From Candidatus Spechtbacteria bacterium (lineage in GTDB: Bacteria > Patescibacteriota > Minisyncoccia > Spechtbacterales > JACPHP01), in NCBI GenBank assembly GCA_016188605.1, contig JACPHP010000016.1:1-60070 (forward strand): a stretch of DNA of 60,070 nt, written 5' to 3'. Below, piece after piece: positions 15,442-60,070 of this stretch. The notes beneath the pieces were generated by a model that had not been told where the DNA came from, searched no databases, and was given only the letters and a program-made list of their open reading frames with translations. The position numbers and the translations under genes were made by a program. Within the stretch, counting starts at the first letter, position 1; every line of letters begins with the position of its first letter.

Positions 15442-15494
15442 TTGCTTTGCAGTATATCGTAGCCAGAAGAAAAAGGCACGTGTGCATAAAAAAG

Positions 15495-18316: not shown

Positions 18317-19378
18317 TTACGTTGTCGGCGAAAGTATTTGTTGGATGAATTGTTGTATCTGTGAATAATCTTCCAGGCCTGCTTTGGGCTGTAAAGTATA
18401 TGCTTGCTGGCCGTCCCAGTTTGCAATTTTTGAAACAAGCAGATTATCTGGCTCAGAGCTTATTACATGAAATTCTACGTTGCCTTGCGAGAATCCTTTT
18501 GTAATATTCCATACACGCTGAATCTCCCCGATAGACGCGTTTGACGCAATATGGCTTTGCGCGTGCTGATAGATTTTTATAATTGTTGGCAGATCCTTTA
18601 CAGAATTGAGCCCTTGTATTTTTTGTTTGAGCGCAAGGAGCACGGTATGTTGGCGGCGCATGCGGTCAAAGTCACCATTGCCAGTGTGGCGCGTGCGAAC
18701 ATATTTTAGCGCATCTTGCCCGTTGAGGTAACGCCATCCGCGTTGTACGGCGAAAGTTTCAAATCCGCGGTCATCCGTAGGGAAAGTTTTATCTTTTAAA
18801 GAATCTTCTTGTGGAATAGAGATGCCACCGACATCATCAATTACTTGTGTTAGCGCGTCAAAGTCGGCGATAAAATAGTACTGAGCTTTAATGCCTGTAA
18901 TTTCTTGCACTTTCTGCTGGATAAGATCCACGCCACCAGGATTTGGGAATACAGCGCTGCCGCTAAACTCGTAAAGCGCATTTATTTTTGTAATAGTTCC
19001 GCGACCGGGTACTGAAACAGCAAGGTCGCGTGGAATAGAGAAGATATCTGCCTTTATATTCACGGTATCAAAAGAGGCGAGCATGATAGTATCTGTCAGG
19101 AGCGAGCCAGGATGATCTTCGCCGCCAATGCCAAGGATGAGCACATTTACGCGGCCTGTTTCTTCGCCTTGCAATTTTACCTCCGGAGTAAGAGGAAGCG
19201 AGGCGACGGGAACCGCGTCTTTTGCTTCGGTAATTATTTGCTGTAATTTTTGTCCATTGGTTGTGTTAACAAAAGACATAATCGCGTCTTTTGTCACAGC
19301 GCCTAAAACTACGGCACTCAAAAAGCCGACTAGGAAAATAAATTTTACACCGCCACGGTTGTTTTGATTAGCACTCAT
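18317..19378 (-). CDS. LytR-CpsA-Psr (LCP) family cell-envelope protein
   Basis: N-terminal TM helix, NVLILGIGGED..LTDTIMLASFD, and RTRHTGNGDFDRMRRQ. Confidence 0.85.
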   Translation of the reverse strand: MSANQNNRGGVKFIFLVGFLSAVVLGAVTKDAIMSFVNTTNGQKLQQIITEAKDAVPVASLPLTPEVKLQGEETGRVNVLILGIGGEDHPGSLLTDTIMLASFDTVNIKADIFSIPRDLAVSVPGRGTITKINALYEFSGSAVFPNPGGVDLIQQKVQEITGIKAQYYFIADFDALTQVIDDVGGISIPQEDSLKDKTFPTDDRGFETFAVQRGWRYLNGQDALKYVRTRHTGNGDFDRMRRQHTVLLALKQKIQGLNSVKDLPTIIKIYQHAQSHIASNASIGEIQRVWNITKGFSQGNVEFHVISSEPDNLLVSKIANWDGQQAYTLQPKAGLEDYSQIQQFIQQILSPTT

Positions 19379-23179: not shown

Positions 23180-23191
23180 TCTCAAAACTTT

Positions 23192-23366
23192 CAGCCATAG
23201 GCTGATCCCCGCCAGAGGCGAACAGGCGCCTCTGGCGGAAAATCAAATCGCAAAACTAAAACTCAAATCTTGAAATTACATAAAACCTCTTGATGAAGAT
23301 TTTCGATTTAAGATGTAGATTTGAGATTTACGATTTGAGTTTTGCGATAACATGTTGAGATTTTAG
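23192..23366. repeat. spacer containing a reverse-orientation copy of the CCGCC module plus a word-built inverted repeat (caaaac/ctcaaat words)
   Basis: ggctgatccccgccagaggcgaacaggcgcctctggcggaaaat at 23200-23243, then atcgcaaaactaaaactcaaatc pairing with gatttgagatttacgatttgagttttgcgat. Confidence 0.75.
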
Positions 23367-24632
23367 ATGAGTACAATAATAGTTGCTCTTATGCCACGCG
23401 ATCATATAGTTGCAGGTTTAGATATAGGAACGAGTATGGTATACACCATTGTCGCGCAAAAGCGACATGATGTTGTTATTCCGCAAATTATTGGCGTGGG
23501 CGCTGCTCCTTCGGCAGGTATGCGCAGAGGTACAGTCGTTGATGCTGACGAGGTAATAAAAAGCATTCGTCATTCTGCTGCTGAGGCTCAGCGTGTTTCA
23601 GGTGTGGCTATCGAGCGCGTATATGTTGGCGTAGGAGGAACTCATATTTCTTGCATTCCCAGCAAGGGCGTTGTTGCGGTATCCCGAGCTGACCAAGAGA
23701 TTTCAAATGAAGATGTAGAGCGAGTATTAGCTGCGGCGCAGGCAATTTCTCTTCCTTCAAACCGTGAAATAGTGCATGTTTTCCCTAGCGAATATATAGT
23801 TGATGGCGAGGGTGGGCTTCATGACGCGGTCGGAATGAACGGCGTGCGCCTCGAAGTAAACACGCTTATTGTTGGAGGATCAAGCCCATATATTAAAATT
23901 TTAAAACGCTGCACGCAAGAAGCCGGACTGGAGGTGGCGGGTATGGTTTTGAATTCTTTTGCATCAAGCAAGGCGGTATTGAGTAAGAGACAAAAAGAAC
24001 TCGGCGTGGTCTGCATAGATATCGGGGGCGGTACGACAAGTCTAGTGGTATTTGAAGAAGGAGATATCGTGCATACGGCCGTGTTTCCTATTGGGTCCAT
24101 GCATATAACAAACGATATTGCCATCGGTTTGCGCACATCAATTGATGTTGCGGAGCGCGTTAAGAAAGAATATGGGCTTGCTCTTGTGCGAGAAGCATCA
24201 AAAAAAGAAACGATTGATTTAAATAAAATTGATCCTCAAGAAGAGGGAACGATTATGCGACGAGATGTCGCAGAGATAGTAGAGGCTCGTCTTGGTGAGT
24301 TGTTTGACTTTTCCAACAAAGAACTTCGCAAGATTGGCAAAGAAGCATTCTTGCCCGGAGGCGTAGTGCTTGTAGGCGGTGGCGCCAAGGTTCCATTGAT
24401 TATCGACCTTGCCAAGGAGCGTATGCGCTTACCGGTGCAAATTGGTTTCCCGCGCGAAGTTGAGGGCATTGTTGATTCTGTTGATGATCCGGCGTTTGCC
24501 ACAGCTCTGGGGCTTGTATTTTGGGGACTTGAGCTTGAAGATGAAAACGGCGGAATACAAAGGCCTCAATTTTCATCATTAAATGGAAGTGTGGGTAAAA
24601 TGCGAAAATGGTTTCGGGCATTTTTGCCATAA
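23367..24632 (+). CDS. ftsA: cell division protein FtsA
   Basis: Actin-fold GLDIGTS, IDIGGGTT and LVGGGA motifs. 421 aa. Confidence 0.93.
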   Translation: MSTIIVALMPRDHIVAGLDIGTSMVYTIVAQKRHDVVIPQIIGVGAAPSAGMRRGTVVDADEVIKSIRHSAAEAQRVSGVAIERVYVGVGGTHISCIPSKGVVAVSRADQEISNEDVERVLAAAQAISLPSNREIVHVFPSEYIVDGEGGLHDAVGMNGVRLEVNTLIVGGSSPYIKILKRCTQEAGLEVAGMVLNSFASSKAVLSKRQKELGVVCIDIGGGTTSLVVFEEGDIVHTAVFPIGSMHITNDIAIGLRTSIDVAERVKKEYGLALVREASKKETIDLNKIDPQEEGTIMRRDVAEIVEARLGELFDFSNKELRKIGKEAFLPGGVVLVGGGAKVPLIIDLAKERMRLPVQIGFPREVEGIVDSVDDPAFATALGLVFWGLELEDENGGIQRPQFSSLNGSVGKMRKWFRAFLP

Positions 24633-24663
24633 GGGGCTAGGAGGAGGCTAATACTCGATTCGA

Positions 24664-24752
24664 TATAGAATCTATTTAAATTTTTATCTTTAGCCAATTT
24701 TCCAAGTTTATCTCTAACGGGGTTGACATTTATTACTACGAATTGCTAATGT
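24664..24752 (+). promoter_or_regulatory. reused promoter cassette, copy 1 (TTGACA-N18-TAATGT) upstream of ftsZ
   Basis: tatagaatctatttaaatttttatc..tttatctctaacggggTTGACA is closely similar to 48114-48178. -35 at 24723-24728. Confidence 0.6.
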
Positions 24753-24780
24753 AGAGTATTACATAAATATTTTAAATTCT

Positions 24781-25989
24781 ATGCCGCAAGTCAAACCAGA
24801 TATACAAACATTCGCACGCATTAAGGTTGTTGGTGTCGGTGGATCCGGATGTCACGCGCTCGCGCGCATGATGGCGCTGCGTGTTGAGGGAGTGGAGTTT
24901 GTCGCAATCAATACCGATGCGCAGGATTTACATAATTCTAACGCGCCGCAGAAGATTCATATCGGCAAGAATTTAACGCGCGGACTTGGCGCGGGTATGA
25001 ATCCTGAAATCGGACGGCAAGCAGCGGAAGAGAATCGCGATGAGCTTCAGGAAGCACTGCGCGGCTCTGACATGGTGTTTGTTGCGGGAGGTCTTGGCGG
25101 AGGTACGTGTACGGGTGCCGCACCCATTGTTGCAGAGGCTGCAAAGCAAAGCGGCGCGTTGACTGTAGCGGTAATCACCAAACCATTTGCATTTGAAGGT
25201 ATGCAGCGCGCGCGACTCGCGGAAGAAGGTCTTGCAAGTTTGCGCGAGCGCGTTGATACGTTGATCACAATTCAAAACGACAGACTCTTGCAGATTATCG
25301 ACCGTAAAACAACTCTTCTAAATGCGTTTGCAATTGTTGACGATGTGTTGCGCCAAGGCGTGCAAGGGATTTCCGATCTTGTTGTGCAACCCGGTATTGT
25401 TAACGTAGATTTTGCAGATATCAAGGCAATTATGCAAGACGCGGGGCCGGCATTGATGGGCATTGGACATGCTTCCGGTGAAGAACGGGCAATGGAAGCG
25501 GCGCGAAGCGCCATTAACTCCCCGCTTTTAGATATTTCTATTGATGGCGCGCGCGGGGTTCTATTTTGTGTAAGCGGGGGCGATGATCTTGCAATGTCTG
25601 AAATTAATGACGCGGCAAAAGTAATCACAGACTCAATTAATCCGGAAGCAAAAGTTATTTTTGGAGCTGTGCTTGATGAACGACTAAAAAAGGGTGAGCT
25701 TAAAGTTACGGTGATAGCAACGGGATTTAGCGATAATGATAATATTGGTAGCCGTAAAGAAGAAACGTCACGACGGGAGCGAGGAATTCCTGACATACAA
25801 AAAAGAGTCGCTGACCATCGTCACGAATCTCCAGTTTCCATAACAGTTAGCAGTGAAAAGGAGTATGTGGAAGAAAATGAAAATAATAACGCAAATAAAG
25901 TTCGACCACTAGAAACAAATATTCCCGTCGCAACCGAGGAAGAAGAAGATTGGGATATCCCCGCGTTTATTAGAAAGAAGTTAAAATAA
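24781..25989 (+). CDS. ftsZ: cell division protein FtsZ
   Basis: VVGVGGSGCHA, GGGTCTGAAP, and the C-terminal DIPAFIRKK peptide. Confidence 0.98.
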   Translation: MPQVKPDIQTFARIKVVGVGGSGCHALARMMALRVEGVEFVAINTDAQDLHNSNAPQKIHIGKNLTRGLGAGMNPEIGRQAAEENRDELQEALRGSDMVFVAGGLGGGTCTGAAPIVAEAAKQSGALTVAVITKPFAFEGMQRARLAEEGLASLRERVDTLITIQNDRLLQIIDRKTTLLNAFAIVDDVLRQGVQGISDLVVQPGIVNVDFADIKAIMQDAGPALMGIGHASGEERAMEAARSAINSPLLDISIDGARGVLFCVSGGDDLAMSEINDAAKVITDSINPEAKVIFGAVLDERLKKGELKVTVIATGFSDNDNIGSRKEETSRRERGIPDIQKRVADHRHESPVSITVSSEKEYVEENENNNANKVRPLETNIPVATEEEEDWDIPAFIRKKLK

Positions 25990-26050
25990 AGTTGCGCAAA
26001 TAAAAAACTGGCATGCGGTATGTATGCCAGTTTTTTATTTGCGTGGATAA
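25988..26050. repeat. terminator-containing direct repeat, copy 1
   Basis: aaagttgcgcaaataaaaaaC[ctggcat..atgccag]ttttttatttgcgtggataa. The conserved flanks recur at 29087-29149. Confidence 0.85.
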
Positions 26051-26082
26051 AAGCTTCCATTATTCACACCCCTTGCTCTTGC

Positions 26083-26097
26083 GGGGGGGGGGGGGGG
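26083..26097. repeat. homopolymeric G15 tract
   Basis: 15 consecutive G, 100 nt upstream of the 931-aa gene. It lies between TTGCTC (26073-26078) and TATAAG (26100-26105). Confidence 0.98.
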
Positions 26098-26196
26098 CTT
26101 ATAAGAATAAAATGAAAAGTACTAGGGTTTAAGGAGCTTTGTAGAGGTTAAACCTCTACAAAGCCCTACACTTAAATTAACTAAAGCATCTTCTCT

Positions 26197-28992
26197 ATGA
26201 AAAACATAGTCATAATAGACGACAACAAAACTTTACTTGAACACAAAGAGCTTCACAGAAAAGCTCGTCTGTTTTCAGCAAGCACTCTGGCCGCTGTTAT
26301 ATCTTCTGTTGTGATCGTAAGCTTATTTATTAACCTTGGGCCTGGAAAAGCGGCAGGAACAAACAATATACAGGTATATACAATAAAGAAAGCTCCTGCC
26401 AGTACCACGGTGAGCACAGTAAGTTCTACGAGAAGAGCGGTTAATTTTACTACAGGCGTAGATGCTTACAAAACTGGCATGAGCGCATCAATAGTGCTTG
26501 GGCAGCCTGATTTTACTAGCAGTACGGTTAATAATGGAGGGGTTTCTGCAAACTCATTAAATTCCCCTAGTGCTGTAGAGATAGCCGATGGAAAAATGGT
26601 TGTTGCGGATTCTTCTAATAATAGAATTCTAATTTGGAATTCAGTTCCGAATAGTTCAACACCCGCCGATTTGGTTTTGGGCCAACCCAATTTCACAAGT
26701 AATACTGCAAATAATGGCGGTATCTCCGCAAGTACTCTTAATGGTCCCCAGTCAGTTATATATGTTGGCGGTAGGTTATTTATAGCGGATTCTTCTAATA
26801 ATAGAATTCTAATTTGGAATTCAGTTCCGAATAGTTCAACACCCGCCGATTTGGTTTTGGGCCAACCCAATTTCACAAGTAATACTGCAAATAATGGCGG
26901 ACTAAGCGCTAGTACTTTCGGTTCTATATGGGACGTAGCTTCAGATGGTACAAAATTAGCCGCGCTAGATCCGACTAATAATAGAATTCTTATATGGAAC
27001 AGCTTGCCTACAGTAAATCAGCAGGCCGCAGATGTGGTTTTGGGTAATAGTATTTTTACAACGGCATTAAGTAATACAGCTTCAGCAAAGGATTTTCAAT
27101 GTGCTTATACATGTAGTATAGATATTAACAACGGAAAATTATTCTTAATGGATAAAATTAACGCACGTGTTCTTATCTGGAATTCAATTTCTACTGTTAA
27201 TTACACTTCTGCTGATGTTGTAATCGGCCAGCCTGATTTTACAACTGCCACCAATAATATTTTTTCAGGAACTAATGTTGTTTCCTCAAAATCGACAAGG
27301 TGGCCATCTGGAGCTTATTCTGATGGACAGAGATTATTTATTTCAGATCATCATAATCATAGGATAATGGTATTTAATTCTATGCCAACTAGTAATTATG
27401 CAGCTGCGGACATAGTAATCGGTCAGACTAGTATGGATACCAGTAATGGACTCGCTAATGGTACTTATACGGGTTCAATTACAGCTTTTAACACCAATAG
27501 TCCAAGTAAACCAGTATATTATAATGGTAACCTGATAGTGCCAGATAGCGGCAACAACCGCATCCTCATCTTCCCCTCCACTGTAGCCACCTCCGCAATC
27601 GCTAGCACTCCTTCCACCACATCCTCGTCAATAACCTACAACACCAACAGCCTCACCTCCACCAAAGCAGACTACGGACTCACAGACCAATATGGTTCAA
27701 CAACATCAGAAACAGACACCTCGCCCAGAGTAATGAGCCACACAGTCTCACTATCCAGCCTCGTAGCATGCACCACCTATCATTACAGAACAAGAGCCAC
27801 AGACGCCACAGCCACGGAAGATGTAAGCAGTGACAACACCTTCACCACCACGGGCTGCACCGCCTCTGCTCCAGTCACCGCAGAAACAGCTTCAGCAATC
27901 ACCACAGCCGCAGGAGGCACGGTAGCTCTAACATCAAACAACACAGGCATATCACTGGCCATCCCCGCGGCATTCACAGGCACAGACGCTAATATCCAAG
28001 TAAAGAAGATAGATGCCACAACTGTCTTTAGAGCAGTAACGGCTCCATCAGGTTACAGCGGCATCAGCACATACACATACGACCTTAAAGCGCTAAGCGG
28101 CGTGGGAACCTCTGTTACAACCTTCAATAACCCTATTACAATTACAATGACATACACCGACGCTGACATTCCTCCTACTATCTCCCAGCATACCCTCAAG
28201 ATACACAGATATGACGGAGTAAATTGGAACGAGCTAACCGGCTGTACCGTAAACAGTTTGGCTAAAACAGTCACCTGCACCACCACAAGCTTTTCTACCT
28301 TCGCCCTCTTTGGCTCTACTTCTTCATCATCCCTAAGTTCATGTTCCAACATTCAGCCAGGCTCTATTCTACCTCAAATTACCAAAGCAGAGGCTCAATC
28401 AACCACCTCCATCCTTCTTACCATCCAAGATGGCAGTGACCCCATCTCTAATTACTACCTGCAATACGGCACATCGCCAAATTCTTACTCTCAAGGATTA
28501 TTCAACATAGGCGCTAAAGGAGTAGGCACATATATCGTTTCTTCTCTTACCCCCAACACCACCTATTACTTTGTCATTGCTTCAGCTAATGACTGTGTTA
28601 CCGGCGCTTGGTCAAAGGAAGTATCGGCAACTACGACCTTGGCTGTTATTAAACCAGAGTCACCCGTGGAGACTCCGAGCGTAGCCCCATCAACTACACC
28701 GATCGAGTCTCCGCCGGCGCAGACTGTTCCAACGCAAACAGAAGTCCCGTCTGTGCAGACAGAGGAAACTGCGGAGAAGGAGGTGCCGAGCGCGCCATCT
28801 GTTTCAATTAATACTTGCCAATCCTATATTGTTAAGGTAGGTGATTCTCTCTGGTCATTAGCAGCTCGCTTTCTCGGCAGCGGTCTTGAATACAAAACAC
28901 TAGCAAAACAAAACGTCTCGTCACATCGCTCGCTTAAAAAGAATTATGATATTATATGGATTGGATGGAGGCTGAAGATAGGATGCGAGTGA
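26197..28992 (+). CDS. large surface-anchored protein: N-terminal TM, NHL-type beta-propeller repeats, Ig/FN3-like middle, C-terminal LysM
   Basis: Repeated ..DSSNNRILIWNS..ADLVLGQP.FTS.. blades, and C-terminal YIVKVGDSLWSLAARFLGSG..YKTLAKQN (LysM). Confidence 0.85.
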   Translation: MKNIVIIDDNKTLLEHKELHRKARLFSASTLAAVISSVVIVSLFINLGPGKAAGTNNIQVYTIKKAPASTTVSTVSSTRRAVNFTTGVDAYKTGMSASIVLGQPDFTSSTVNNGGVSANSLNSPSAVEIADGKMVVADSSNNRILIWNSVPNSSTPADLVLGQPNFTSNTANNGGISASTLNGPQSVIYVGGRLFIADSSNNRILIWNSVPNSSTPADLVLGQPNFTSNTANNGGLSASTFGSIWDVASDGTKLAALDPTNNRILIWNSLPTVNQQAADVVLGNSIFTTALSNTASAKDFQCAYTCSIDINNGKLFLMDKINARVLIWNSISTVNYTSADVVIGQPDFTTATNNIFSGTNVVSSKSTRWPSGAYSDGQRLFISDHHNHRIMVFNSMPTSNYAAADIVIGQTSMDTSNGLANGTYTGSITAFNTNSPSKPVYYNGNLIVPDSGNNRILIFPSTVATSAIASTPSTTSSSITYNTNSLTSTKADYGLTDQYGSTTSETDTSPRVMSHTVSLSSLVACTTYHYRTRATDATATEDVSSDNTFTTTGCTASAPVTAETASAITTAAGGTVALTSNNTGISLAIPAAFTGTDANIQVKKIDATTVFRAVTAPSGYSGISTYTYDLKALSGVGTSVTTFNNPITITMTYTDADIPPTISQHTLKIHRYDGVNWNELTGCTVNSLAKTVTCTTTSFSTFALFGSTSSSSLSSCSNIQPGSILPQITKAEAQSTTSILLTIQDGSDPISNYYLQYGTSPNSYSQGLFNIGAKGVGTYIVSSLTPNTTYYFVIASANDCVTGAWSKEVSATTTLAVIKPESPVETPSVAPSTTPIESPPAQTVPTQTEVPSVQTEETAEKEVPSAPSVSINTCQSYIVKVGDSLWSLAARFLGSGLEYKTLAKQNVSSHRSLKKNYDIIWIGWRLKIGCE
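26605..26900 (+). repeat. intragenic tandem duplication, 180-nt period
   Basis: The 116-nt blocks 26605-26720 and 26785-26900 are identical by eye. Confidence 0.9.
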
Positions 28993-29014
28993 GCTTGAGA
29001 AGAAGTCCTTGAGA

Positions 29015-29060
29015 AGAAGCCTAGCTTCCACGAGCGCGTGGAAGCTAGGCTTCAAGGAGA
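29015..29060 (+). terminator. 17-bp stem hairpin after the surface-protein gene
   Basis: gaagcctagcttccacg-agcg-cgtggaagctaggcttc. Confidence 0.7.
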
Positions 29061-29086
29061 CTTCGGAGATTGGTGGAAATTGAAAT

Positions 29087-29149: not shown

Positions 29150-29411
29150 CTAAAATAAAATTAATAATTTTATTTTTGTAGTTATCCACATGTTTATGAT
29201 TTGCATTATGTTATATAATATAAATGTACATTGAGTAAAAATTATTTTGTATGAAGTTCCCTTCGACTCGCGATGCAAAAATGTATGGATTATAAAAATA
29301 TAATTCAATGCTTAGCATGAGCGAGGGGACGGTTGATTTCATACACTCTGTATTTTCCATCCGAGGCGTTTGCCGCCTCTAGCGAAAAAAGTTTAATTTA
29401 CATACAAAAAT

Positions 29412-29513
29412 ATGGCAACACGACGAGCAGCAAAAAAGACTGCAACAAAGCGCAGGGTAGCAAAGCGAGCGCCTGCAAAAAAGCGAGTGGCACGACGACG
29501 AGCGCGCAGATAA
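29412..29513 (+). CDS. possible small Lys/Arg/Ala-rich protein (33 aa), not in the ORF track
   Basis: MATRRAAKKTATKRRVAKRAPAKKRVARRRARR*, followed by a strong terminator. No SD. It overlaps a 63-aa track ORF in another frame that looks less protein-like. Confidence 0.3.
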   Translation: MATRRAAKKTATKRRVAKRAPAKKRVARRRARR

Positions 29514-29535
29514 TAATGTTGTGAGTTCTTTTAGT

Positions 29536-34706: not shown

Positions 34707-34950
34707 TTCTTTTTCCTCCCTTTCGAGGCTACTAAAAAAAGAACAACGACATTGGTTATTATCTCCTCGTGCAGTCGTAGGGTCAACTGTGGATAACTTC
34801 GGGCGCTATTATGGCTTGTACAAGCCATAATAGCGCCCATCACGCCGAAGCTCCGCTTAGCGGAGCGAGGGATGATGTATTGATTAGTGTTGTGCATAAC
34901 TATTAAACTGATATAATTATAAGCGATTTGACTTTTAATTTTTGATTTAT

Positions 34951-53767: not shown

Positions 53768-54433
53768 ATGCCAACACCACAATTATCACAATCAAGAAAT
53801 TCACAAGACCATCGTCGTATGGGGCCTGGAGGAGGAAGGGGGGGCGAGCGAAGGGGTGGGATACAGCAAAGGAGAGAACGAGGTCCGCAAACTCAAAGAG
53901 AGGGATCGCGTTTTGCGTCACAAGAATTTGAGCAAAAACTTTTACAGCTTGCTCGCGTTGCTCGTGTCACGAAAGGCGGACGACGATTTAGTTTCCGCGC
54001 GACAGTAGTTATTGGTGATCGCAATGGTCGTGTCGGGGTGGGGGTTGCAAAGGGAACTGACGTTTCCGCGGCAGTTGAAAAAGCCGTGCGTAATGCTAAG
54101 CGCGCTTTGATTATTGTCCCAATGACAAAAAATAAGACTGTTCCTTATGAAGTCATCGGCAAGCAGACTAGCGCCCGAGTATTTTTGGCACCGGCATTCG
54201 GCGGGCGTGGAATTATTGCTGGAGGCGCTGTGCGCGCAGTGTGCGACCTGGCAGGATATCGTGATATTTCAGCAAAAATTTTAGGACGCACGAGTAATAA
54301 ATTAAATAACGCGCTTGCAACCATTAAAGCATTGCAATCAATTAAGATGATGAAGCGAGGAAAGGTTACGCAAAACGAAGTAATCTCAAACGAAACGGTC
54401 GTGAGTGAGGATGAGGTTCAACTAGTAAAATAA
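53768..54433 (+). CDS. rpsE: 30S ribosomal protein S5 with an Arg/Gly-rich N-terminal extension
   Basis: VTKGGRRFSFRATVVIGDRNGRVGVGVAKG, preceded by about 50 aa of GGGRGGERRGG-type sequence. Confidence 0.95.
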   Translation: MPTPQLSQSRNSQDHRRMGPGGGRGGERRGGIQQRRERGPQTQREGSRFASQEFEQKLLQLARVARVTKGGRRFSFRATVVIGDRNGRVGVGVAKGTDVSAAVEKAVRNAKRALIIVPMTKNKTVPYEVIGKQTSARVFLAPAFGGRGIIAGGAVRAVCDLAGYRDISAKILGRTSNKLNNALATIKALQSIKMMKRGKVTQNEVISNETVVSEDEVQLVK

Positions 54434-57701: not shown

Positions 57702-58364
57702 ATGGTTGAAGCTATCCATCCACGCATCGTTATTCTTCTTGGCCGCTCCGGGGCGGGTAAGGGAACGCAAGCAAAATTATTGCAGGAAAAATACGGACTT
57801 ACCTATATGGGGTCCGGCGATTTATTAAGGGAACGCGCGACACACGACGATTTTTCCGGAAAAAAAATTCACACCGTGCTTGCAAGCGGCGGATTCTCTC
57901 CCACAATTTTTATCGCGAAACTCTGGATGGACAAGTTTGAAGAGTTTAAGCAGTTAGAAAATTTTAAGGGCGTTCTTTTTGACGGCAGCCCGCGAAAATT
58001 ATTGGAAGCCCAGCTTATCGATCAGGCAATTGCGTGGTATGAGTGGGAGGGCGACCAACGCGTGTTCCTGCTTGATATTCCGCGTGACGTAGCATACCAG
58101 CGATTGATCGATCGCCGTATTTGCAAAGCCTGTTCGTTTGTTACTTCTATTCATGAAACGCCGGATACAAGCTGCCCAACATGTCATAATTCGTTAGATA
58201 TACGTTTTGATGATAAGCCCGACCTTATTAATTCACGTCTTGATCTTTTTGAAAGCGAAGTTGAGCCCGTGGTAGAGTATTATGAGAAGAATAATCGCCT
58301 AACACGCATTAACGGTGTTGGCGAAATTTCCGAAATATTTGAATCTATTTGTAAGTATTTATAA
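57702..58364 (+). CDS. adk: adenylate kinase, copy 1 (Cys4 lid)
   Basis: LLGRSGAGKGTQ, with lid CKAC....CPTC. Confidence 0.92.
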   Translation: MVEAIHPRIVILLGRSGAGKGTQAKLLQEKYGLTYMGSGDLLRERATHDDFSGKKIHTVLASGGFSPTIFIAKLWMDKFEEFKQLENFKGVLFDGSPRKLLEAQLIDQAIAWYEWEGDQRVFLLDIPRDVAYQRLIDRRICKACSFVTSIHETPDTSCPTCHNSLDIRFDDKPDLINSRLDLFESEVEPVVEYYEKNNRLTRINGVGEISEIFESICKYL

Positions 58365-59865: not shown

Positions 59866-59929
59866 GGAGGGTCGGTCCGTCCTGCGCGCCATCCTCAACC
59901 ATAGACTTATCCACACCCTACCCATCGCA

Positions 59930-59941
59930 GGGGGGGGGGGG
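59930..59941. repeat. homopolymeric G12 tract
   Basis: 12 consecutive G, preceded by cttatccacaccctacccatcgca, which is homologous to the sequence upstream of the G15 tract. TATACT lies at 59950-59955. Confidence 0.98.
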
Positions 59942-60010
59942 ATTCATGATATACTATATTCATAGGTCTGCCAGTTTATATTCTTATTCATTAAACTATA
60001 TATATATAAT

Positions 60011-60070
60011 ATGCTACCCATATTAAAAAAAAGACAAACCTGGAGCGCTATAGCCAGTATTATCATAGCA
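60011..60070 (+). CDS. start of a membrane/secreted protein gene, cut by the window edge
   Basis: ATG then MLPILKKRQTWSAIASIIIA (basic residues then hydrophobic). Only 20 codons are visible. Confidence 0.35.
   Translation, partial: MLPILKKRQTWSAIASIIIA

Follow-up and report, generated by a model that had tools for sequence, protein, structure and literature searches.

Contingency promoters built on homopolymers are characteristic of pathogens adapted to a host. In Neisseria meningitidis porA (poly-G) and opc (poly-C), in Haemophilus influenzae hif (TA repeats) and in Mycoplasma hyorhinis vlp (poly-A), the promoter spacer carries a repeat that lies between the -35 and -10 elements or overlaps them, and slippage results in on, intermediate or off expression of a surface protein. 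Patescibacteria (CPR) are ultrasmall bacteria, many of them episymbionts that rely on contact with the host surface and on escape from phage, and they have very few recognisable regulators. In the fim promoters of Bordetella, the distance between the activator and the -10 element is under the control of a conserved fim box together with a C-stretch of 7–22 nt; C-stretch length varies among strains and changes transcription (PMC1891110). For Campylobacter jejuni, one report describes hypermutable G/C homopolymers of ~8–13 nt, which are concentrated in surface-structure genes (PMC8355987). A full-text literature search yielded no report of homopolymer phase variation that concerns Patescibacteria, CPR or Saccharibacteria; the CPR “hypervariation” paper deals with 9-mer repeats in coding sequence (PMC6851277).

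The 60,070-nt stretch of DNA analysed here over its full length (the window) includes a ribosomal-protein cluster, ftsA/ftsZ, hisS, dprA and comEC, and the nearest named relatives of its FtsZ are Candidatus Spechtbacterales; it is chromosomal DNA of a Patescibacterium living in groundwater. It harbours two poly-G tracts, both intergenic: that of locus 1 separates ftsZ from the gene for a 931-amino-acid protein, and that of locus 2 separates map (methionine aminopeptidase) from the gene for a signal-peptide repeat protein. The elements of the two loci are the following:

26060–26071, + strand: upstream box of locus 1, TTATTCACACCC, its first 9 nt equal to the DnaA-box consensus, TTATNCACA
26083–26097, + strand: poly-G tract of locus 1, an uninterrupted G15 in the window, where other assemblies of this sequence have G14 or G13
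26197–28992, + strand: gene for the 931-amino-acid protein of locus 1, which is anchored in the membrane by its N-terminus and has NHL repeats, fn3 and, at the C-terminus, a LysM domain
59907–59918, + strand: upstream box of locus 2, TTATCCACACCC, its first 9 nt likewise equal to the DnaA-box consensus
59930–59941, + strand: poly-G tract of locus 2, an uninterrupted G12 in the window; G14 in MAG contig JACPCQ010000070
60011–60070, + strand: gene for the secreted repeat protein of locus 2 (ATG at 60011, signal peptide), which runs off the window

A first-pass annotation, made from the letters alone, had placed a G15 and a G12 at exactly these coordinates and had stated that long G runs are otherwise absent. 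Indeed, no other run of nine or more Gs occurs on either strand of the window, the runner-up being a G7 at 53838, within coding sequence. Overlapping matches to the G 9-mer number 11 versus 0.10 expected, and none of 100 shuffles of the window reaches 11. In purity and length (G15 and G12; G8–G14 in relatives), the tracts qualify as slippable repeats, i.e., homopolymers of about eight nt or more.

Both tracts lie downstream of the 12-mer TTATYCACACCC, which is matched without mismatch at only two places in the window, 26060–26071 and 59907–59918. The box ends 11 nt ahead of the tract at both window loci, and the two copies are identical at 11 of 12 positions. The annotation had quoted 24 nt of homologous upstream sequence: this homology is real for the 12-mer, but the rest of the quoted sequence is unlike, except for the GC/GCA that abuts the tract. 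Its description of the downstream products as basic, then hydrophobic at the N-terminus applies to both (locus 1, MKNIVIIDDNKTLLEHKELHRKARLFSASTLAAVISSVVIVSLF...; locus 2, MLPILKKRQTWSAIASIIIAVFLISGLTQA...), and the idea of a shared, oriented upstream module before two surface-protein genes is borne out.

Among 5.8 billion sequences, nothing closely homologous to the 931-amino-acid protein was found, the best match showing 50% identity over 39% of the query. At least 547 amino acids of the locus-2 protein, rich in Thr/Ser/Gly repeats, are visible in an NCBI MAG contig (L008), and they gave no match in Pfam; in the orthologue comparison, this protein matched its own MAG copy only, P0124 was without record and the sequence upstream of P0206 contains Ns. 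The NHL region of the locus-1 gene (26600–27244) contains 180-nt tandem units, with DNA identity of 94–100% between 26600–26736 and 26780–26916; recombination among such units is a possible second source of size variation. The putative 5′ UTR of the same gene includes one further structured element, unique in the window and without a T run, which could be an operator or a 5′ stabiliser of the mRNA:

26136–26164, + strand: hairpin with a perfect 14-bp stem and a 1-nt loop, GCTTTGTAGAGGTT/AACCTCTACAAAGC (-15.3 kcal/mol, z = -5.6)

We scanned GTDB genomes and JGI metagenomes with a pattern consisting of the box, 6–16 nt of any sequence and at least nine Gs. The annotation had recommended searching for further copies of the upstream element with G tracts, and such copies were found in other Patescibacteria-type MAGs, mostly before genes for surface or secreted proteins. 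The common layout consists of the box, 8–16 nt, a pure run of G8–G15, 8–11 nt and an extended -10 element; in the other MAGs, the run is mostly G8–G10. Three paralogous copies (G9, G10 and G10) occur in the Hainich aquifer Patescibacteria MAG H41-bin111_1, and single copies in DeMMO3_42 and DeMMO3_36; the module is also present in the groundwater contigs L016, L038, L024 and L036. The sample of related sites is biased in that the search pattern demanded the box and at least G9; independently of the pattern, an unselected G8 in contig L006 also lies behind a box, and a box stands ahead of every run of at least G8 in ~120 kb of module loci. The strand is equally independent of the pattern: in all nine sites, the Gs stand on the coding strand of the gene behind the tract.

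In H41-bin111_1, again independently of the pattern, three different upstream contexts turn identical precisely at the first T of the box. These copies, on L004, L005 and L010 (the same data as L018, L019 and L014), follow uvrB and other genes; the box, the G9/G10 tract and the gene's 5′ end are identical among them; two of them are located at contig ends.

The products encoded behind the tracts are, for five of the eight distinct proteins, membrane-anchored, secreted or pilin-like: the NHL/fn3/LysM protein of locus 1, the signal-peptide repeat protein of locus 2, a collagen-like protein that is membrane-anchored and has a pectate-lyase fold (the three copies of H41-bin111_1), a protein resembling type IV pilins and carrying a Fib_succ_major domain (L036) and another signal-peptide protein. 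The other three (both sites in L006 and that in L007) are without signal peptide.

A second group of metagenome matches, CAGGGAT-TTATCCACACCCCCC-TA-G9-14-TTATCACCCCCC, was discarded as eukaryotic repeats: their contigs, all from JGI samples, lack long ORFs and carry CA microsatellites. In this eukaryotic-looking repeat (CAGGGAT-TTATCCACACCCCCC-TA-Gn-TTATCACCCCCCTAG; contigs L012, L013, L015, L020–L023, L026–L028, L030, L031, L035, L037, L039 and L040), the same 12-mer and G9–G14 coincide by chance, often at contig ends, and the repeat may be a transposon terminus. Matches in L009/L025/L043 (Oscillospiraceae), L011 (Verrucomicrobiales) and L044 appear to be chance matches or different elements and were set aside too. 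The scan of viral contigs gave nothing relevant. A promoter G-quadruplex was likewise rejected: with a requirement of four G runs (~11 G for two tetrads, 15 for three), it is possible for the two window tracts only, the G8–G10 members of the family being unable to form one.

The comparison across loci suggests a common promoter anatomy. An extended -10 element (TGn[T/G]AnnnT), with its hexamer 8–11 nt past the tract, is present in six of nine independent sites; ~0.3 sites are expected by chance, and the maximum in 2000 composition-matched shuffles was three, in a count where the script took two window sites twice. At locus 2, the element reads TGATATACT; relatives show, for example, TGGTATAAT, TGGTAAAAT and TGGGATACT. 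These elements were recognised through the cross-locus comparison only, and a consensus scan for canonical sigma-70 promoters on the gene strand found none at locus 1 or locus 2. The extended -10 at a fixed distance past the tract would place the tract within the promoter. Directly ahead of the tract, TTGC, TAGC or TCGC is found at both window loci, in L036, L024 and H41 and at both sites of L006; from the sequence, this T(T/A/C)GC running into the tract would be part of a putative -35-like hexamer. The corresponding elements in the window are:

26079–26084, + strand: -35-like TTGCGG abutting the tract of locus 1, a reading from sequence
26100–26105, + strand: candidate -10 TATAAG of locus 1, at a distance of 40 from the box, where the family spans 40–43
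26108–26113, + strand: alternative -10 TAAAAT of locus 1, read from sequence
59947–59955, + strand: extended -10 element TGATATACT of locus 2, its hexamer 8 nt past the tract and 43 nt from the start of the box

From the start of the box to the start of the -10, the distance is 40–43 nt across sites, while the intervening segments vary: 8–16 nt between box and tract, 8–15 nt for the tract and 2–11 nt between tract and -10. The inferred spacer between -35 and -10 measures 16–19 nt in the G8–G10 loci of relatives; at locus 2, it would be 19 nt with the G12 of the window and 21 nt with the G14 of L008, and at locus 1, from TTGCGG to TATAAG, 13–15 nt with G13–G15. Locus 1 has no extended -10, and its -35/-10 assignment is ambiguous: at G15, the spacer amounts to 15 nt for TTGCGG/TATAAG, 21 nt for TTGCTC/TATAAG and 23 nt for TTGCGG/TAAAAT. 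The annotation had chosen the second of these parses, and its arithmetic is correct (TTGCTC at 26073–26078 to TATAAG at 26100–26105, 21 nt); however, TTGCTC does not agree with the relatives, in which the -35-like TTGC or TAGC abuts the tract. Nor does the optimum that it proposed, G11, hold up, for the box would then stand only 36 nt from the -10, whereas locus 1 with TATAAG falls in the family range of 40–43 at G15–G18. At locus 1, in L006 and in L007, the tract was seen to lie past the terminator of the upstream gene.

The first nine nt of the box equal exactly, at both loci, the 9-mer TTATNCACA, the DnaA-box consensus. This 9-mer occurs eight times in the window versus 2.2 expected, and four to six of its copies are intergenic versus 0.43 expected. 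Apart from the two poly-G loci, the copies are:

15481–15489, - strand: TTATNCACA, promoter-proximal, without tract
18360–18368, - strand: TTATNCACA, promoter-proximal, without tract
29182–29190, + strand: TTATCCACA box of an ordinary tract-less promoter ahead of a small basic protein and then comEC, kept in relatives
34788–34796, - strand: TTATNCACA, promoter-proximal, without tract
34891–34899, - strand: TTATNCACA, promoter-proximal, without tract
45479: the eighth copy of TTATNCACA, inside coding sequence

The six promoter-proximal copies judged intergenic are each directed at the gene behind them, and so is the copy before pth, which sits at the 3′ end of the preceding gene; the genes in question are dprA, pth, that of the small basic protein with comEC, the two poly-G genes and one for a small membrane protein. 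In four of the five tract-less copies, the box starts 32–33 nt ahead of a TAnnnT hexamer, which positions it immediately upstream of the -35 and nearer, by roughly one turn of the helix, than in the poly-G promoters. Ahead of the operon of the small protein and comEC, relatives with FtsZ identity of 93% and 75% show the box unchanged, while the surrounding intergenic DNA has diverged, which marks the box as a genuine conserved promoter element of this lineage. For the protein binding there, DnaA would be no more than the obvious candidate. The likeness to DnaA boxes consists in the match with the consensus at both loci and at six other sites in the window; the difference is that the boxes here are single, promoter-proximal and aimed at the downstream gene, with no origin in the window. 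Indeed, oriC was rejected as an explanation: the cumulative GC skew climbs steadily across the window without a reversal of trend, and the boxes are single, 34 kb apart and ahead of genes, not clustered at a skew switch next to dnaA/dnaN.

A side observation concerns the tract-less comEC promoter. A leader of ~220 nt (window 29190–29515; L051 1480–1750) precedes the gene for a Lys/Arg/Ala-rich protein of 33–35 amino acids just upstream of comEC, and blocks of it are kept in the 93% relative (GAAGTTCCCTT.GACTCGC ... GCGAGGGGACGGTTGATTTCATAC); it has no match in Rfam at the gathering threshold.

The surroundings of locus 1 show that the poly-G promoter and the 931-amino-acid gene constitute a strain-specific insertion of 3.1 kb (26051–29075). 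The ftsZ gene (24781–25989) is followed by a 20-bp terminator hairpin, and the insertion is enclosed by two copies of a 74-nt direct repeat:

25977–26050, + strand: left copy of the 74-nt direct repeat, with the 3′ end of ftsZ, the terminator hairpin and GTGGATAA
29076–29149, + strand: right copy of the 74-nt direct repeat, with a remnant 3′ end of ftsZ, GAAATTGAAATAA

In the relatives without insertion (L051 and L052), the small basic protein and comEC come immediately after ftsZ. The remnant ftsZ end, GAAATTGAAATAA, is identical to that of the relative with 93% identity. The arrangement suggests a Campbell-type integration of a circle with homology to the end of ftsZ.

Both tracts are polymorphic between assemblies of the same sequence, as slippage in the tracts would have it. 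At locus 1, the tract is G14 in L001 (Logan; contig common to two samples), with no other difference over 23191–26634, and G13 in L002 (Logan; with three further similar places), with no other difference over 23191–26122, compared with G15 in the window. At locus 2, it is G14 in L008 (NCBI MAG contig JACPCQ010000070, NC_groundwater_287) versus G12, next to two SNPs in ~960 nt. At both loci, the tract length is the sole indel between otherwise identical assemblies. These lengths are consensus values from short-read assemblies, and runs of G12–15 are error-prone in library PCR, sequencing and assembly; the differences of 1–2 nt could therefore be technical in origin. Many Logan contigs end near the tracts, 25 nt past and also 15 nt ahead of that of locus 1 and, in six assemblies, 36 nt ahead of that of locus 2. 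The contig ends and the length differences are as expected of a hypermutable tract; they are also as expected if long poly-G is sequenced poorly.

Breaks at identical positions recur in independent Logan assemblies, namely 59894 (the ends of L045 and L046) and 23191 (the starts of L001, L002, L041 and L042). The former is one k-mer (31 nt) past the map stop codon and the latter lies in the ybeY–ftsA intergenic region; such shared positions point to repeat boundaries or population variants. Exact-protein look-ups for more alleles returned no record for the map protein and the 931-amino-acid protein; the ftsA look-up added no contig spanning the tract, and every contig retrieved with the kinase gene (57702–58364) ends at or before 59894, short of the tract.

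In a rival reading, the G run would be a fixed structural or recognition element of the promoter, which might serve as a rigid spacer in A-form or contribute to a site for protein binding, and the length differences between assemblies would be noise of sequencing or assembly. The module is kept with G8–G10 in most other MAGs, the differences are of just 1–2 nt, and the frequent ending of Logan contigs near tracts is what poor read quality of poly-G predicts. We hold such a static element to be unlikely, however: the tract varies from 8 to 15 nt between loci, yet the box-to-(-10) distance stays at 40–43 nt, so that spacing apparently outweighs G content; no tract is interrupted or shorter than the length of frequent slippage in other bacteria; and the assemblies disagree at both loci, in one case by 2 nt. 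A more radical doubt, that the tracts themselves are two-colour Illumina poly-G or mark a chimeric join, can invoke the dark-cycle base-calling artefact known to produce poly-G and the breaking of several contigs near tracts. Yet, the same junctions, with unique flanks on both sides, occur in independent assemblies (window, Logan and NCBI MAG), the same box precedes the tract in MAGs of other sites and studies, and a tract of at most 15 nt is too short for bridging k-mers; independent assemblies and MAGs of other studies effectively refute an artefact or chimera, which is extremely improbable.

The insertion at locus 1 raises the alternative that box and tract serve the recombination or integration of mobile gene cassettes instead of the control of transcription. 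It accords with the poly-G promoter and the 931-amino-acid gene lying in a 3.1-kb insertion with 74-nt direct repeats that is missing between ftsZ and comEC in relatives, with the exact convergence of three H41-bin111_1 contexts at the first T of the box and with the six Logan assemblies that stop one k-mer past the map stop codon. But the direct repeat stops 9 nt short of the box and excludes it, neither locus adjoins an integrase or transposase, the box also occurs at ordinary conserved tract-less promoters, and a duplicated gene would in any case bring along the promoter at its upstream edge; a cassette boundary is accordingly a very improbable role. Little credence is due, too, to a role in the mRNA leader, where the transcribed tract would sequester a C-rich or Shine-Dalgarno sequence or give rise to reiterative transcription from a promoter at or upstream of the box. 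The tract does read as G on the coding strand in nine of nine sites, and CCC or CCCC stands ahead of every tract; against this, the extended -10 lies downstream of the tract in six of the nine, the hairpin between C-run and G-run is no more stable than in shuffles (z = -0.7 and -1.65) and the terminators of the upstream genes sit just ahead of the box. Around both loci, Rfam showed no family, at the gathering threshold or at E ≤ 1.

The explanation that we favour, and consider fairly probable, is a slipped-strand contingency promoter, in which the length of the tract sets the distance from the upstream box to the core promoter. The composite promoter would consist of the box TTATYCACACCC, 8–16 variable nt ending in the -35-like T(T/A/C)GC, the pure G run, 2–11 nt and a -10, usually extended by TGn. 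Slipped-strand mispairing during replication would add or remove G; each change in tract length would shift the box, presumably the contact site of an activator or of RNA polymerase, relative to the core promoter in both distance and helical phase, and would alter the -35/-10 spacer as well. Transcription of the downstream surface gene would be switched or graded in a stochastic and reversible manner within the population. The model thereby presumes a biological origin of the length differences, a transcription start downstream of the tract and control of expression by tract length. Extended -10 promoters depend little on the -35, so a pure effect of spacer length may be weak, and the model then rests on the putative box-binding factor.

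With the general class of SSR contingency promoters, the loci have in common the type of tract, the polymorphism between samples and the class of genes, and their tracts may also lie within the promoter. The tracts of Neisseria, Haemophilus and Mycoplasma resemble them in that here, too, a -35-like TTGC or TAGC abuts the tract, with spacers of 16–19 nt in the G8–G10 loci; they differ in that the promoters here have mostly an extended -10 and a conserved box further upstream, which suggests that the distance between activator and core may be the controlled variable. The closest analogues, by analogy and not by family membership, would be the fim2, fim3, fimX and fimN promoters of Bordetella pertussis and B. 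bronchiseptica. In both systems, one box is common to several surface-gene promoters and a homopolymer lies between box and -10: TTATYCACACCC stands ahead of every tract at 8–16 nt, with 40–43 nt from box to -10. The sequence of the fim box, to which BvgA binds, is unlike that of the box here, which also serves ordinary tract-less promoters; moreover, Bordetella is a pathogen and the bacterium here a groundwater Patescibacterium, and its genes are non-fimbrial except for one pilin-like gene (L036). As to Campylobacter jejuni, both intergenic and intragenic tracts are described, whereas those described here are all intergenic, in promoters, and carry a conserved flanking box (PMC8355987). The mechanism itself is classical; what is new are the phylum, the box and the cassette context.

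A broader reading, which we regard as speculative and rather doubtful, would make TTATYCACA the operator of a global Patescibacteria regulator, possibly DnaA, for a regulon of DNA uptake and cell surface; a poly-G tract between operator and core promoter would turn its promoters into stochastic switches, and units of promoter plus gene would be mobile as cassettes, resulting in a combinatorial surface repertoire. The regulon in the window would then comprise dprA, the comEC operon, the small membrane protein and the two adhesin-like genes; the pilin-like gene in L036 also lies behind box and tract, and the 3.1-kb insertion flanked by the 74-nt duplication suggests movement of cassettes. If true, episymbionts with tiny genomes would gain a surface repertoire that is combinatorial, heritable and reversible.

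The box, with its match to the DnaA consensus, offers a handle on the control of transcription in Patescibacteria. If the slipped-strand switches are real, they would allow adhesin-like proteins to vary at the level of the population without extra regulatory genes, and they would account for the recurrent assembly breaks at such loci. The combination of box and poly-G would then provide a simple signature by which a variable surface repertoire may be recognised across thousands of uncultivated genomes.
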